From: Candidatus Aenigmatarchaeota archaeon | Lineage (GTDB): Archaea; Aenigmatarchaeota; Aenigmatarchaeia; CG10238-14; SpSt-28 | DNA length: 53,712 nt | NCBI GenBank assembly: GCA_038997305.1 | Contig: JAWAZZ010000004.1 | Coordinates: 1-53,712 of the forward strand | Direction of reading: 5' to 3' | Shown: one piece after another, positions 47,294 to 50,607 of the stretch | Position numbering within the stretch: position 1 is the stretch's first letter | Layout: each line of letters opens with the position of its first letter | Position numbers and translations under genes: made by a program | Notes under the pieces: model-generated | Databases searched by the model: none | Seen by the model: only the letters and a program-made list of their open reading frames with translations | Told to the model about the DNA's origin: nothing

Positions 47294-48769
47294 ATGGTAG
47301 AAATTAAAAAGATAGTTGAACAAAATAAATGGTGGGTTTTAGGAAAGGATTTCGAGTATTTTGACGAAGATATGAAGAAATTCAAGGAAAAGATCGTAAT
47401 AGTTGAAAGGAAAGATTTAGAGATAAGAACAGGTAATGTATACACTATAGAGGGGCCTCGCCAAATTGGAAAAACCACATGGATAAAACAAAAAATAAAA
47501 AAGCTTATAGAATCTGGTTTCGATCCAAACAAAATTTGTTATTTTTCTCTGGATAGAGTTTACTCAAGGAAAGAATTGTCTAAAATTCTCGACTATTTTA
47601 TTTCTACTAAAGGCGAAAATATTTTCATTTTTTTAGATGAAATAGGATATGTAAAGGATTGGGAAATAGAAATTAAATCATTCCTAGATAGAAATTTATC
47701 AAAGGTTTGCATAGTAATTACTGGCTCGCCATTTAGAATGAGAGAAAAGATAAGTGAATTAATAGGGAGAGGCATAGAGGGTAATAGATACTTTATAAAA
47801 CCTCTATCATTCAGGGACTTTTTATTGAATTTTAGCAGTGGAGGCTATCTTTTAGATTATTTATTCAAAACCGTTAAAAAAATAAATGAAGAAACTTTTT
47901 TAAAGACTAAAAAATTAGTTGAAACGCTTAAGAAAAACAAGATTGTTTTTAATGACTTGAACGAAATTGAAGAAAAAGTAAAAAGCTTATTAGATTTCGT
48001 TGAAATTTTAGACTTTTGGTTTTACAATTATTACTTAATTACTGGAGGTTTTCCAGAAATAATCGATGAATTTATTAAAAGAGATGCTATTCCTCCAGAA
48101 AAATATGAAAAATTTGCTAATGCCTTATTTACTGGAATGGAGTTTGAAACTAAGATAGACATTAGAAAGTTGATTGAAAAACTTCCATATTTTATTGCCT
48201 ATCGAGTAAACTTAGTTAATTTAACAAATGAATTTGAAGAGGGAACATCTTTCCAAACTCTACAGAAATATTTAAGAATACTTGAAGATAAATTCATAAT
48301 AAGAGTTCTTAATTCTGTAAACAAAAAATTGAAAGAAAGGTCAAGAGGTTTGAAAAAAATTTACTTTACTGATGTTGTAATGTTATACACTTCTATTCTT
48401 CTTAGTGAAGGAAAGTTCGGCAATGCTTTTGAATATATAAAAAACGAAATTCTGACAAACGAAAATTATTTGGGAAAAATTATTGAAAATCTTGTTGCAA
48501 TTTCTTTAGTAGACTTTATCGAAGAACCTTTTATTGATTACAAAAAATTTCTCTTTTTCTTATATGACGGAAACAAAGAAATAGATTTTATACTTAAAAA
48601 AGATAATAAAGTTTTTGCAATAGAGTGTATGAGTGAGGATATTCCAAAAATAAATGCTGAAAGTATTCTAATCTTAACTAAGGATAATTTTGAGATAAAA
48701 AATAATATTATTAAAGTTCCTGTTTCTGTTTTTTTGAGTCTTATAGAAAAATCGAAAGTTAATATATAA
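47294..48769 (+). CDS. AAA_14 ATPase with DUF4143/PD-(D/E)xK-like C-terminus
   Basis: QNKWW, GPRQIGKTT, FLDEI, ITGS, PLSFRDF, TGGFP, KKIYFTD, IENLV, EIDFI..AIE. Confidence 0.88.
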   Translation: MVEIKKIVEQNKWWVLGKDFEYFDEDMKKFKEKIVIVERKDLEIRTGNVYTIEGPRQIGKTTWIKQKIKKLIESGFDPNKICYFSLDRVYSRKELSKILDYFISTKGENIFIFLDEIGYVKDWEIEIKSFLDRNLSKVCIVITGSPFRMREKISELIGRGIEGNRYFIKPLSFRDFLLNFSSGGYLLDYLFKTVKKINEETFLKTKKLVETLKKNKIVFNDLNEIEEKVKSLLDFVEILDFWFYNYYLITGGFPEIIDEFIKRDAIPPEKYEKFANALFTGMEFETKIDIRKLIEKLPYFIAYRVNLVNLTNEFEEGTSFQTLQKYLRILEDKFIIRVLNSVNKKLKERSRGLKKIYFTDVVMLYTSILLSEGKFGNAFEYIKNEILTNENYLGKIIENLVAISLVDFIEEPFIDYKKFLFFLYDGNKEIDFILKKDNKVFAIECMSEDIPKINAESILILTKDNFEIKNNIIKVPVSVFLSLIEKSKVNI

Positions 48770-48795
48770 TTTGAAATTTTGCTAAACTAATTTAT

Positions 48796-48868
48796 GCCCC
48801 GGTAGCTCAGCAGGTAGAGCGCTGCTCTGGTAAAGCAGAGGTCCCGGGTTCAAATCCCGGCCGGGGCT
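48796..48868 (+). tRNA. tRNA-Thr(GGT)
   Basis: GCCCCGG..CTGCT-CT GGT AA-AGCAG..CCGGG-TTCAAAT-CCCGG-CCGGGGC-T. Confidence 0.95.
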
Positions 48869-48931
48869 ATCAGAATTTATTTTTCACTTATAAGTAATTT
48901 ACTTATATATCCATACTCAGGATATAAGATT

Positions 48932-49540
48932 ATGATGAAAAATAGCACCAAAAACTTTAGGAGAAAAACTCAAGACCTGAAGAGTTATATGCATCTCCCG
49001 AGGAGTATTTTGAAGATTTAAAATTAACTTCAGGTTATATAAGAGCACAAACTAAGCTAACTCTTGAATTATTAGATTTGATGAAAATGGGACCAGGAGC
49101 TAAAGTTTTGGATCTTGGTTGTGGTTTTGGAATAACATCAGAAATATTAAAAGAACTTGGATATAAAGTTGTTGGAATAGATATAAGTAAGAGGATGGTT
49201 GAACATTGTAGAGAGAGGTATTGAAGTTGTTTTGGGTGACTTTAGAGAATTAGAAAAATATTTTGAAAAGGATGAATTTGATTATGGTATTTCCGTTTCT
49301 TCTCTCCAATGGATTTCAAAAGACAAAAACTCGTTAATTAAATTCGCTAAAGGTTGTAATTATGTAATCAAAAGAAGTCTTGGAATTCAATTCTATCCTT
49401 ATTCCTTTAAAGAGTTAGAAGAGGTAGTGAGAATTTTGAGAAAATTCTTTGGTCTAACTGAATATTATATATTTGGTAAAGGGACTAAAAAAGAGAGAAT
49501 TTATGTCATCTCAAAAAAGATAAGTCAAAAGAGTTTTTAA
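48932..49540 (+). pseudogene. Frameshifted Bud23/WBSCR22-like class I SAM methyltransferase
   Basis: Frame 48961-49224 reads SRPEELYASPEEYF..AQTKLTLELL..VLDLGCGFG..GIDISKRM. A second frame (49199-49540) continues FDYGISVSSLQW..QFYP. Breaks at A5 (48964-68) and (AG)4 (49210-17). Confidence 0.8.
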
Positions 49541-49686
49541 AATGTTTAAAATAAAATTTGTTTTTTAACAGAAAAATATAAAAATTAAATACAAAGTTTC
49601 TTTTCGGTACATCATCTAAAATAATAATAAAATAATTAATATAACAACATAATAAAAAAGATAGATTATCAAAATCAAAAATCTAT

Positions 49687-49759
49687 TGGGGCGGGAGGGA
49701 TTCGAACCCTCGACCTTCCGGTCTTCAGCCGGACGCTCTCCCAGCTGAGCTACCGCCCC
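49687..49759 (-). tRNA. tRNA-Phe(GAA)
   Basis: Minus strand GGGGCGG..TCCGG-CT GAA GA-CCGGA..GAGGG-TTCGAAT-CCCTC-CCGCCCC-A. Confidence 0.96.
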
Positions 49760-49801
49760 TTATAAAAAATATTTAAAATATTCACTATTTAATTTTTAAT
49801 A

Positions 49802-49999
49802 ATGGGAAGAGTAAGAACAAGGGATATAAAAAATTTAGCATTAAAAATTTTAGAACAACATAGAGATAAGTTTACAACAGATTTTGAAAAAAATAAGCAA
49901 ATAATAAATCAGCTCTATTATTTTTATTCCAAAAAGATAAGAAATAAAATTGTTGGATACATTACAAAACTGGTTAAAAAATCCTCTAAAGCTTCTTAG
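49802..49999 (+). CDS. rps17e: 30S ribosomal protein S17e
   Basis: MGRVRT..IK..A..F..DFE.NK..SKKIRNKIVGYIT. Confidence 0.96.
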   Translation: MGRVRTRDIKNLALKILEQHRDKFTTDFEKNKQIINQLYYFYSKKIRNKIVGYITKLVKKSSKAS

Positions 50000-50607
50000 A
50001 TCTCAAACCTAAGTAAAGCAGCTATTTTCATCTTATCACAAAATTCTTTATCATCTATTAAAGCTATTTTTGAGTTTTGTTTTAATGCTTTAATTATTTT
50101 ATCAAACGAATCAATAAACATATGTTTACATATATAAAGCTTTTCAACTATTCCATATTCTAAATATTCATCAATCTTGTCTTTATCCGTAACAAATCTT
50201 TTTGAATTTTGAAAAATATGAATTTTTATTTCCTCTGCTTTTCCAAACTCAAAATTCCTTAATTTTTCTAAAATTAACTTAGATTTTTCATCTACCTTAT
50301 TTTTGTTTATTATTAATTCTTTTCCTATTTCTATGTTTTCGCCGTGGTGACCTTTATCTAACCTTTCGCTAGAAACTTCTTCAATCTTTCCAACAATTCT
50401 ACCCTTTTCAAAATTAACTTTTTCAATTCTTATTTTAGCGAAAGCTTCGATTCTATCTAAAAACTTCCCATCTTTTTTAGAATATACATTCCTTATTATT
50501 TTCATCTCAACCACATCAAACCTATTTATTAAAAACAAAGTTAAAAATTTTTCTATTTCATTCTCAACTTTAACATATATTTTATCTGAATTTAATAATT
50601 TAATCAT
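49996..50607 (-). CDS. pelA: Short Pelota/Dom34 homologue (N and C domains only)
   Basis: N-domain pattern V.VEN..DVV....R..I.IEKV.F..RI.GKI....GHH..I..GKEL.I.K, and C-domain G.VEKLYI..IAALLRFEI. Confidence 0.7.
   Translation of the reverse strand: MIKLLNSDKIYVKVENEIEKFLTLFLINRFDVVEMKIIRNVYSKKDGKFLDRIEAFAKIRIEKVNFEKGRIVGKIEEVSSERLDKGHHGENIEIGKELIINKNKVDEKSKLILEKLRNFEFGKAEEIKIHIFQNSKRFVTDKDKIDEYLEYGIVEKLYICKHMFIDSFDKIIKALKQNSKIALIDDKEFCDKMKIAALLRFEI

Follow-up and report, generated by a model that had tools for sequence, protein, structure and literature searches.

Bud23-type methyltransferases and their described distribution

Bud23 is a textbook example of a eukaryotic ribosome-biogenesis factor and acts together with Trm112. 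Bud23 of Saccharomyces cerevisiae and BUD23-WBSCR22 of human methylate N7 of 18S rRNA guanine 1575 and 1639 with Trm112 and TRMT112, respectively (PDB 4QTT, 4QTU, 6G4W, 7WTN). The passages on archaea in two specialist reviews, from 2017 and 2018, describe them as being without a Bud23 homologue (PMC5372719, PMC6144793), which agrees with the earlier note's remark that Bud23 is treated as a eukaryotic factor, and one of them states that m7G at the corresponding position is not reported for any archaeal 16S rRNA analysed so far (PMC5372719). In its relevant passages, the study of Ebersberger 2013 (PMC3919561) assigned automatic BUD23 'orthologs' to all taxa, bacteria included, without one Pfam domain; these are too unspecific to serve as a prior description. 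A literature search found no paper pairing Bud23 with DPANN, Asgard or Lokiarchaeota. WBSCR22 appears in the reference lists only in the matching passages of papers pairing it with Asgard, and Bud23 goes unnamed in the relevant main-text passages of papers tracing ribosome-biogenesis factors into archaea. Automated Bud23 labels already exist, some relatives of the gene described here carrying the JGI name '18S rRNA (guanine1575-N7)-methyltransferase'.

Two kinds of archaeal enzyme are close enough to be compared with the present locus. Haloferax volcanii Hvo_0019 (PDB 6F5Z) and other Trm112-dependent enzymes are archaeal, class I and Trm112-binding, and have a Rossmann-like core in common with the family, but the likeness of Hvo_0019 is limited to this core and the RPEE lid is absent. 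The short Bud23-type proteins of Asgard archaea (Promethearchaeota Loki_b31 and Hermodarchaeota; loci L014 and L016) are of the same family and have the same short architecture, scoring 206-214 bits on a profile built from archaeal members. They are intact, common and nearer to eukaryotic Bud23, whereas the copy studied here belongs to a separate DPANN-type clade and is broken.

Locus and reading frames

The window, a 53,712-nt stretch of DNA analysed as a whole, belongs to a metagenome-assembled draft genome (G000; 26 contigs, 660 kb) of an uncultured hot-spring Aenigmatarchaeota (DPANN) archaeon. One gene of about 200 codons, distributed over two frames, occupies 48932-49540 on the + strand, and it is likely to be a recently inactivated gene (pseudogene) of a short archaeal-type Bud23/WBSCR22 methyltransferase. 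Its features and neighbours are as follows.

48796-48868, + strand: tRNA-Thr (GGT), immediately 5' of the methyltransferase gene and on the same strand (ARAGORN); also in the sister population G002 (L118:1099-1171)
48903-48910, + strand: TATA-box-like TTATATAT, centred about 26 nt 5' of the ATG at 48932 (read from the sequence)
48932-48971, + strand: ancestral 5' end beginning ATG ATG (MMKNSTKNFRRKT), from the frame-2 translation
48971-48972, + strand: first frameshift, a 1-nt gap relative to G002 (pairwise alignments)
48973-49209, + strand: frame-1 segment of 79 codons, from the lid (RPEEL..Y..Q) through motif I (VLDLGCGFG) to GIDIS..HC
49210-49224, + strand: second frameshift, where 2 nt present in G002 are missing immediately ahead of or inside the (AG)4 tract at 49210-49217
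49211-49540, + strand: frame-2 segment, which translates into the C-terminal half of the methyltransferase domain, with TAA at 49538-49540
49687-49759, - strand: tRNA-Phe (GAA), the 3' limit of the variable segment (ARAGORN); kept beside rps17e in G001-G005
49802-49999, + strand: rps17e (ribosomal protein eS17; PF00833, E 4.7e-18), unlinked to the methyltransferase in relatives

The earlier note had proposed a methyltransferase hidden across reading frames at 48961-49540, between two tRNAs near rps17e, and every string that it quoted is present in the translations. Frame 1 (48931+3k) is open from 48961 to 49221 and reads EKNSRPEELYASPEEYF..AQTKLTLELLDL..VLDLGCGFG..GIDIS..HCRERY; past the second frameshift it meets TGA at 49222-49224. 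Frame 2 (48932+3k) supplies ERGIEVV, LGDF, FDYGISVSSLQW, GIQFYP and KKERIYVI over 49211-49537. The split frame had been recognized correctly. Of its two changes, one went unmentioned in the earlier note: the single ATG start, at 48932 in frame 2, does not share its frame with the SRPEEL segment. Frame 2 read from this ATG stops at 49019-49021, after 29 codons. The 5' segment MMKNSTKNFRRKT is similar in length and basic character to the N-termini of intact relatives in the alignment (P0049: MDVPKFTRKGERPEE..). At the first frameshift, which shifts the gene body into frame 1, G002 reads ACT CTT AGA CCA where the window reads ACT C-A AGA CCT, a placement that is uncertain within a few bases. Both tRNAs and rps17e were also found as proposed; the adjacency to rps17e holds here but is not conserved, the corresponding G002 locus having no gene.

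Each of the longest open pieces, of 48 aa and 113 aa, lacks half of the catalytic domain, so that ordinary translation would yield no active enzyme. TTATATAT is a putative promoter element of the archaeal kind, and its position would give a leaderless or near-leaderless mRNA. The G002 counterpart, TTATAAAT, stands at a similar spacing to the first G002 ATG.

Membership in the Bud23 family

The strings of yeast Bud23 on which the proposed kinship was based agree with the HMMER output for 4qtt_B, and the match goes beyond the SAM site, far above chance. Searched against the PDB, the N-terminal 87-aa piece found yeast Bud23 best (E 3e-9), and the N-terminal half aligned to residues 2-83 of 4qtt_B, i.e. 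from Bud23 residue 2. The read-through of the whole gene, with X at the break, reached 222.6 bits with the archaeal family profile. With a profile made from eukaryotic Bud23 alone (28 rows) it scored 80.3 bits (E 1e-24, positions 8-199), compared with 23.6-45.3 bits, all partial, for 10 generic methyltransferases. The frame-2 C-terminal half matched positions 93-200 of the archaeal family profile (E 5e-33). Taken alone, this piece matched no Pfam family and, in the PDB, found chance-level matches only (designed proteins, eL31) and a weak 9xab_1 (E 1.3), which among the matches of the intact relative comes right after yeast Bud23. All 15 near-invariant family residues are retained in the broken gene according to the alignment.

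The intact same-genus relative G001 leads to the same family. The best 5 of its 41 PDB matches were all Bud23-type chains, the alignment to Bud23 running end to end at 2.8e-18 and the next match, a generic methyltransferase core, following at 5.4e-10. A 12-sequence profile of intact archaeal relatives gave 143.8 bits (4.3e-41) for Bud23 versus 76.7 bits (1.5e-20) for the next methyltransferase family. Against these Bud23 values, chain 6f5z_A of Hvo_0019 reached 1.7e-5 with the G001 query and 9.1e-10 with the profile. The structure was modelled on the intact G001 protein rather than on the broken window protein, and the AlphaFold2 model had a pLDDT of 97.5. With this model the best 8 Foldseek matches were all Bud23 chains, superposing with TM 0.73-0.91 and rmsd 1.6-2.1 Å, followed by a match with TM 0.62-0.69 and rmsd 3.9 Å; 6f5z_A had TM 0.61 and rmsd 5.6 Å.

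It is very improbable that the gene encodes a generic class I SAM methyltransferase (UbiE or Methyltransf_11/25 type) resembling Bud23 by chance. The core with VLDLGCGFG in frame 1 matches Methyltransf_25 (1.2e-9) and Methyltransf_11 (1.9e-8), Pfam and NCBIfam assigned the N-terminal half to generic methyltransferase families only and gave no useful match with the C-terminal half, and relatives are named 'class I SAM-dependent methyltransferase' or 'UbiE' in NCBI and in some JGI records. Nevertheless, the Bud23 catalytic domain has no model in Pfam or NCBIfam, and these collections cannot decide Bud23 membership for that reason. Chance resemblance is further opposed by the profile margins (67 bits with the archaeal profile and at least 35 bits with the eukaryote-only profile), by end-to-end alignments that take in both the N-terminal lid and the C-terminal strand, by the 8 Bud23 chains leading the structure search, and by the JGI label cited above, which several relatives bear. 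By two-way profiles and structure, the gene is a member of the Bud23 family and not a generic class I methyltransferase, the grouping that the earlier note had named as the outcome contrary to its proposal.

Like Bud23, the archaeal family has a class I SAM core with motif I xLDxGCGxG, an N-terminal lid beginning RPEE with conserved Y and Q, SISAxQW and QFYP motifs, and a C-terminal strand with basic residues followed by YL/YV, and G000 has a Trm112 gene. Unlike Bud23, it comes from an archaeal host, is about 200 aa long instead of about 275-290, and lacks the C-terminal basic extension PF12589 (WBS_methylT), which is present in 10/10 long eukaryotic representatives tested and had no match in the window pieces; the copy in the window is in addition a pseudogene, and the N-terminal lid of its subclade is interrupted by a 5-residue gap. 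The window's reading frame stops 6 residues past the core, and short archaeal forms extend 0-9 residues beyond the profile. The PF12589 extension is a mark of the eukaryotic form, not of the catalytic family. Of the earlier description as 'eukaryote-like', the family assignment stands, but 'archaeal branch member' is the better term for a protein outside the eukaryotic clade.

Predicted function and the possible Trm112 partner

By homology to yeast and human Bud23, the intact relatives would be class I SAM-dependent enzymes of about 200 aa, in which the lid (RPEEL..Y..Q) and the SISALQW/QFYP pocket would methylate N7 of a conserved small-subunit P-site guanine, the equivalent of yeast G1575 and presumably of E. 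coli G1338. This homology predicts a 16S m7G activity and a part in the maturation of the small subunit, together with a partnership of the archaeal protein with Trm112, the small zinc protein encoded in the same genome, with which it could form a heterodimer.

The Trm112 gene, which the earlier note had proposed to look for, was found in G000 and encodes a 66-aa zinc knuckle (PF03966, 43.7 bits). Trm112 occurs in 7/7 genomes of the genus, the 4 that lack the methyltransferase among them, and was found in 0/9 genomes searched in genus g2, including the methyltransferase-bearing G017 (82% complete), indicating that Trm112 does not track the methyltransferase gene. Complex prediction with G001 methyltransferase and Trm112 alignments gave 0.73, 0.00 and 0.00 in three runs made without controls, and no conclusion is drawn from these values.

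The substrate of the window's subclade may differ from that of Bud23, because the subclade is divergent, has the lid gap and scores low on the eukaryotic profile. We consider it possible, on a tentative basis, that the family is real but that the intact DPANN enzyme has a different target (a tRNA, some other rRNA base or a protein), in which case the lost mark would not be 16S m7G. The subclade is the most divergent, with its N-terminal lid shortened and the C-terminal motif YIFGKGTKKERIYVI replacing IIDNPxxPKKRKIYL; the two diverged paralogues of Asgard genomes suggest that substrates probably diversified within the family, and the gene and Trm112 do not co-vary. On the other hand, the residues of the SAM and purine pocket shared with Bud23 (RPEE, Y, Q, SxSxLQW, QFYP) are kept, and past purifying selection was strong, both of which count against a different target.

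Probable recent inactivation of the gene

The frame is split by two small deletions, of which one removes 1 nt near 48971 and the other 2 nt at the AG tract near 49210, and a ribosome starting at the sole ATG would make a peptide of 29 residues. The G002 copy (78% nt identity) reads in frame through both shift sites, and G001, P0049 and other relatives have single open frames. The dN/dS relative to G002 was 0.118 over 182 codons, 0.118 again in the first 40 codons, which lie 5' of any internal Met, and 0.133 and 0.106 in the frame-1 and frame-2 segments, values of about 0.12 that point to recent breaks. A search of the 660-kb assembly for a second copy gave the two gene halves as its only matches with E <= 1e-25. 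Apart from the breaks the sequence is undamaged, and it is the same in samples dated 2022, 2023 and 2025, which would also fit a gene still in use. The sister copy in G002 has no in-frame start.

Indels at short repeats are a common type of error and G000 is a draft assembled from a metagenome, and the frameshifts could on these grounds be taken for sequencing or assembly errors in a gene that is truly intact. This is highly unlikely. Contigs from 3 of 4 runs, each from another study, span both frameshift sites with 0 differences and 0 gaps, namely a contig of 877 nt at depth 15 (X1), one of 876 nt at depth 1178 (X3) and one of 645 nt at depth 4.5 (X5), with no insertion or deletion reported anywhere in the stretch; the fourth run (X7) has no coverage of the sites. 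One of the three matching runs may be the source sample of the genome, which leaves at least two that are independent. Since rare variants drop out of contigs, this comparison is compatible with a minority intact allele.

A full-length enzyme could also be imagined to arise by recoding, with two slippage events decoding the broken copy. If tRNA-Lys slipped by -1 on the A5 run (48964-48968), or if transcription added an extra A, ribosomes would be carried from the ATG frame into the SRPEEL frame; at the (AG)4/TAT TGA site a second event, either +1 or -2, would lead into the C-terminal frame. Both shifts lie at or beside simple repeats, tRNA-Lys could pair again without mismatch after moving back by one base along the A5 run as judged from the sequence, a 9-bp hairpin begins 5 nt 3' of the A run, every conserved residue is kept in the rest of the gene, and the identical sequence persists in contigs from three studies. 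We nevertheless hold recoding to be a slim prospect. Neither shift is conserved, and the sister G002 copy being in frame at both sites indicates that the shifts are not programmed; moreover, the best alignment puts the first gap past the A run, within a Leu codon. The hairpin after the first site is not significant (z -1.64; 15/200 shuffles fold as well) and is present in G002 too, where no shift is required, and there is no structure 3' of the second site (z +1.84). No X XXY YYZ heptamer could be read in the zero frame, and two distinct recoding events in one gene of 200 codons would be without precedent. For slippage to be efficient, both the A5 run and the (AG)4 tract are on the short side. 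As a conserved element in its own right, the hairpin (48974-49036) was rejected: it is common to the window and G002, with one compensatory pair, and absent from G001 and G017, and two sequences are too few.

A recently broken pseudogene is accordingly the reading that we retain. The earlier proposal that this lineage 'has or had' the enzyme is borne out for 'had' in this organism but not for 'has'. On this reading the broken copy shows that a reduced genome can do without the gene, and the loss is caught in progress, with two fresh indels here, the lack of an in-frame start in the sister copy and clean empty sites. As a natural knock-out beside gene-keeping relatives, it would allow the predicted rRNA mark to be tested without genetics.

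Phylogeny, distribution and mobility

Eukaryotic sequences form one clade (SH-aLRT 99 for a clade of 15 rows, SH-like 99 for one of 40 rows), and the window's copy falls outside it, within a 15-row clade of short forms (support 95) whose named members are Aenigmatarchaeota and Nanoarchaeota. The subclade of the window, G002 and P0049 is the most divergent archaeal branch, with a long stem of 0.64, and scores 77-84 bits on the eukaryotic profile versus 149-156 bits for Asgard type-1 copies. The tree labels (dpann_like, asgard1_like, asgard2_like, other_short) were assigned once the first tree had been seen, on the basis of the few members with names, and organism names were obtained for 3 of 20 proteins queried (Nanoarchaeota, Promethearchaeota and 'archaeon'). 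Rooting with an outgroup failed, as generic methyltransferases fell inside the ingroup on long branches (4/10 in the 157-row tree, 1/5 in the 67-row tree), and for this reason we claim neither a branch order of eukaryotic, Asgard and DPANN sequences nor a donor lineage. The closest characterised relatives are eukaryotic and the occurrence in the phylum is patchy, as might be expected from a recent transfer from a eukaryote into this archaeon. Such a transfer is nonetheless extremely improbable, given the position of the window's copy outside the supported eukaryotic clade (99) and inside the clade of short forms (95), and the missing C-terminal extension.

The family is present in 3/7 genomes of the genus, the broken copy included, and missing from 4/7. 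Its site differs in each of four relatives and lies beside a tRNA gene in two genomes. The G002 copy is situated 3' of tRNA-Val, and G000 has the exact empty counterpart of this site at C9:458/459, with the tRNA abutting the neighbour's stop codon. Conversely, the tRNA-Thr / tRNA-Phe / rps17e locus of G002 has an unrelated 335-nt spacer instead of the gene; BLASTN with word size 7 found no gene remnant in this spacer, giving short AT-rich chance matches only. Contig joints (48869 to 49686 and similar) were set aside, their matching sides of 20-30 letters being too short; they probably come from a G002-type population or from tRNAs of other organisms.

Within this genus the gene shows the behaviour of dispensable and movable DNA. 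It is conceivable, though rather doubtful as yet, that the gene travels with its promoter as a self-contained cassette of about 0.7 kb, which settles on the 3' side of tRNA genes (tRNA-Thr in G000, tRNA-Val in G002), with exact empty sites left behind and parallel loss now under way in co-existing populations. If this were so, these populations would be natural knock-outs, and a comparison of their 16S rRNA with that of gene-keeping neighbours would test the archaeal P-site m7G.

Taken with its intact relatives, the search for which had been suggested earlier and which were found within the genus (e.g. G001) as well as in the Asgard phylum, the locus shows that a short archaeal branch of the Bud23 family exists. 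This branch has a rare and patchy occurrence among DPANN archaea but is common in the sampled Asgard phylum, which bears on the question of which eukaryotic ribosome-maturation parts predate eukaryotes. Members were found in 18/371 genomes of the window's phylum and in 151/400 genomes of the Asgard phylum sampled, most of these 151 carrying two paralogues each, intact.

A Bud23-type gene spread over two reading frames

Translation of the interval between the tRNA-Thr and tRNA-Phe genes shows a single methyltransferase gene spread over two frames, with the following features:

48796-48868 (+), tRNA-Thr(GGT), upstream of the methyltransferase gene
48961 to TGA at 49222-49224 (+), open segment in frame 1 (48931+3k), EKNSRPEELYASPEEYF..AQTKLTLELLDL..VLDLGCGFG..GIDISKRMVEHCRERY
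up to TAA at 49538-49540 (+), segment in frame 2 (48932+3k), ERGIEVVLGDF..FDYGISVSSLQW..GIQFYP..KKERIYVISKKISQKSF
49687-49759 (-), tRNA-Phe(GAA), downstream of the methyltransferase gene
49802-49999, rps17e (PF00833, E 4.7e-18)

The earlier note had described a Bud23-like gene hidden across reading frames, and this is borne out: all peptide strings that it quoted could be found in the window, and the yeast Bud23 strings that it gave agree with the HMMER alignment for PDB chain 4qtt_B. The frame changes number two, not one, because the sole ATG of the gene (ATGATG at 48932) lies in frame 2, which closes after 29 codons, and the frame-1 body lacks an early start, its first start codon being an internal TTG at 49078. 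Downstream of rps17e, a 203-aa ORF (49996-50607, minus strand) gave a weak match to PF03463 (eRF1 domain 1; E 0.0044, below cut-off); it also adjoins rps17e in four other genomes of the genus (G001, G002, G004 and G005; DNA identity 70-84%) and is matched in scattered parts only in a fifth, G003.

Membership of the Bud23 family

Searches of Pfam and NCBIfam assigned the N-terminal half to generic class I methyltransferase families only and gave no match for the C-terminal half. The Pfam model for Bud23 covers only the eukaryotic C-terminal extension (PF12589) and leaves the catalytic core unmodelled, so that Pfam is unable to decide membership. Against PDB, the 87-aa N-terminal piece alone had yeast Bud23 as its top match (E 3e-9, alignment starting at Bud23 residue 2), and for the intact relative in G001 (206 aa) the best five of 41 matches were Bud23-type chains, residues 16-202 aligning end to end with Bud23 3-199 at 2.8e-18, with the next match (5.4e-10) covering the core only. 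A profile made from 12 intact sequences of archaea gave E 4.3e-41 (143.8 bits) for Bud23, against 1.5e-20 (76.7 bits) for the family ranked next. In the reverse direction, a profile was built from 28 eukaryotic representatives only, using their catalytic domains; these proteins were chosen by a C-terminal extension matching that of ten proteins, all ten of which carry PF12589. This profile scored the window read-through (X at the break) at 80.3 bits (E 1e-24, profile positions 8-199), the copy in the sister genome G002 at 83.7, G001 at 111.0 and two Asgard sequences at 149-156 bits, and all ten generic methyltransferases, from relatives and other prokaryotes, at 23.6-45.3 bits with partial coverage.

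An AlphaFold2 model from a 75-row alignment with the G001 protein as its first row reached pLDDT 97.5, and its first eight Foldseek matches were Bud23 chains (TM 0.73-0.91, rmsd 1.6-2.1 Å), followed by an unrelated archaeal methyltransferase (TM 0.62-0.69, rmsd 3.9 Å). Profiles in both directions, the predicted G001 structure and the end-to-end PDB match thus favor the Bud23 family, as proposed in the earlier note, rather than a generic class I methyltransferase; judged by sequence the window gene is a family member, as is its intact relative when judged by predicted structure. Eukaryotic Bud23 carries a C-terminal extension, whereas the window copy and the archaeal forms are without it, the archaeal short forms stopping within 0-9 residues of the core.

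Eukaryotic sequences formed one clade both in a 157-row FastTree (SH-like 99) and in a 67-row IQ-TREE mixture model (SH-aLRT 99). The window copy fell outside this clade and clustered with the G002 copy and with P0049, a protein from metagenomes (support 100); the three belong to a clade of 15 rows, made up of short forms (support 95), in which the few members with names come from Aenigmatarchaeota and Nanoarchaeota. Since the tree backbone lacks resolution and the outgroups misbehave, no archaeal branch is named as nearest to eukaryotes. Among the archaeal branches the window subclade diverges most: its stem is long, its lid shows a 5-residue gap and its C-terminal motif is changed. A changed substrate for it is possible, though less likely than not.

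Predicted function and Trm112

By analogy with its family, the intact archaeal enzyme would bind SAM and methylate N7 of the conserved P-site guanine in 16S rRNA (equivalent of yeast G1575), possibly acting with Trm112; 16S m7G activity is a reasonable prediction from homology. A search of the window's own genome for this possible partner recovered a 66-aa zinc-knuckle Trm112 gene on contig 6. Trm112 is present in all seven genomes of the genus regardless of the methyltransferase, a lack of co-variation that would be expected if Trm112 serves several enzymes. In genus g2, Trm112 (PF03966) was found in none of nine genomes, including G017 (82% complete), which contains the methyltransferase.

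Two real frameshifts and a recent pseudogene

Aligned to G002 (78% nucleotide identity), the window lacks 1 nt after 48971 (window ACT C-A AGA CCT, G002 ACT CTT AGA CCA) and 2 nt after 49209, at an (AG)4 tract (49210-49217). Logan contigs from four hot-spring metagenome runs of four studies were mapped over 48700-49800, and contigs spanning both sites without differences or gaps were found in X1 (877 nt, depth 15), X3 (876 nt, depth 1178) and X5 (645 nt, depth 4.5), those of X7 leaving both sites uncovered. No insertions or deletions relative to the window were listed across this interval. One of the three spanning runs may itself be the source of the assembly, and contigs mask rare alleles; even so, a misassembly confined to this genome is excluded.

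Programmed frameshifting would offer another way to read the two frames as one protein. No canonical slippery heptamer was present in the zero frame, and the RNA that follows each site is no more stably folded than its shuffled versions (z -1.64 and +1.84); furthermore, the G002 gene needs no shift at either site, and G001, P0049 and other relatives are single open frames, which together indicate that the shifts are not programmed. The locus is unable to yield active enzyme by ordinary translation, and no second copy was found in the 660-kb assembly (92% complete) at E <= 1e-25. A 9-bp hairpin (GACCUGAAG / CUUCAGGUU) lies inside the coding region at 48974-49036, not significant against shuffles (z -1.64); it is kept in G002 via two synonymous changes forming one compensatory pair (U-A to A-U) and is missing in G001 and G017.

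Relative to G002, dN/dS was 0.118 over 182 codons (dS 1.16, near saturation) and the first 40 codons, which precede every internal start, gave the same value, indicating that purifying selection acted on the whole frame, including the N-terminal lid, during most of the period after the two species diverged. Each of the 15 near-invariant residues of the family is retained. The indels are recent. The window copy is a newly formed pseudogene, and tRNA genes flank the variable region that holds it.

In G002 the gene may also be failing (L002:1768-1800, minus strand). It has no in-frame start, and an in-frame TGA stands four codons before SRRKTLRPEEL. A TATA-like box precedes the nearest ATG; that ATG is offset from the gene's frame by one base, and its own frame ends after six codons. 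The explanation is either a second 5′ break, independent of the first, or an uncommon non-AUG start (ATA in frame), or an error in the assembly. A contig with G002-type differences was found in all four runs (26 differences over 49244-49417; each of the 17 listed is identical to the G002 base), indicating that window-type and G002-type populations coexist. X3 and X5 contigs join the tRNA-Thr end (48869) to tRNA-Phe (49686), skipping 816 nt; these joints probably represent a G002-type population with its own spacer, the 29-30 letters on the shorter side being too weak for a deletion allele.

Evidence for movement between genomic sites

Four related genomes with the gene hold it in four different positions:

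Window (G000): 3′ of tRNA-Thr
G002: 3′ of tRNA-Val, convergent with a PF04013 RNA methyltransferase gene
G001: between a radical-SAM gene and an M16 peptidase gene
G017 (L003:1501-1989): divergent from the uL22-uS3-uL29 ribosomal protein genes

The window's genome has the exact empty site for the G002 position (contig 9, C9:458/459; L126:384-460), where the tRNA-Val 3′ end abuts the stop codon of the PF04013 gene; there G002 carries a 671-nt segment with promoter and Bud23-type gene (L002:1191-1861). Reciprocally, the G002 tRNA-Thr/tRNA-Phe/rps17e locus holds an unrelated 335-nt spacer in the gene's place. The layout given in the earlier note, between two tRNAs next to rps17e, is correct, but rps17e is an incidental neighbour, and the gene belongs to the flexible gene content of these small genomes. 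Upstream of tRNA-Thr, the window encodes an AAA_14/DUF4143 ATPase (47294-48769) and G002 an Fpg/Nei-type DNA glycosylase (L118:323-1153); the whole stretch around these tRNAs is variable between the sister genomes.

An archaeal Bud23-type family

At a family-profile cut-off of E <= 1e-25, the gene occurs in 18 of the 371 genomes from the window's phylum (8 of the 98 that are of high quality) and, within the genus, in G000 (broken), G001 and G002; none was found at this cut-off in G003-G006 (82-94% complete). Intact relatives include the single frames of G001 and P0049 and, at the same cut-off in Promethearchaeota (Asgard, the phylum of Loki_b31), genes in 151 of 400 genomes (G371, G372, G374 and 148 further genomes; loci L014-L019, L022 and L023), mostly as two diverged paralogues. 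The first, of RPEEL/QFYP type, is closest to eukaryotic Bud23, and the second has KNxxPxFP..SKWMERNQ..EFYP motifs.

Published statements of the group that solved the Bud23–Trm112 structure hold that archaea have no protein significantly similar to Bud23, and note that the archaeal 16S rRNAs analysed so far lack the matching m7G, in agreement with this (PMC5372719, PMC6144793). The archaeal Bud23-type family contradicts these specialist reviews. An older automatic survey lists BUD23 "orthologs" in all taxa including bacteria, minus one Pfam domain (PMC3919561). Literature searches pairing Bud23 with DPANN, Asgard or Lokiarchaeota found no paper, and the main texts of two papers tracing ribosome-biogenesis factors into archaea leave Bud23 unnamed, although their supplementary tables may list it. 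The window adds gene loss in progress and evidence of gene movement between sites, and its broken copy amounts to a natural knock-out against which the predicted rRNA mark could be tested.

JGI automatic annotation already calls several relatives "18S rRNA (guanine1575-N7)-methyltransferase", and NCBI calls them class I SAM-dependent methyltransferases. Among 1.84 billion representative proteins, 139 clusters matched the profile at E <= 1e-30, and the best 150 hits comprised about 100 short forms, the remainder being mostly eukaryotic Bud23. Two short-family representatives, P0020 (412 aa) and P0032 (382 aa), are of double length with two matched stretches, as tandem or fused methyltransferase forms.
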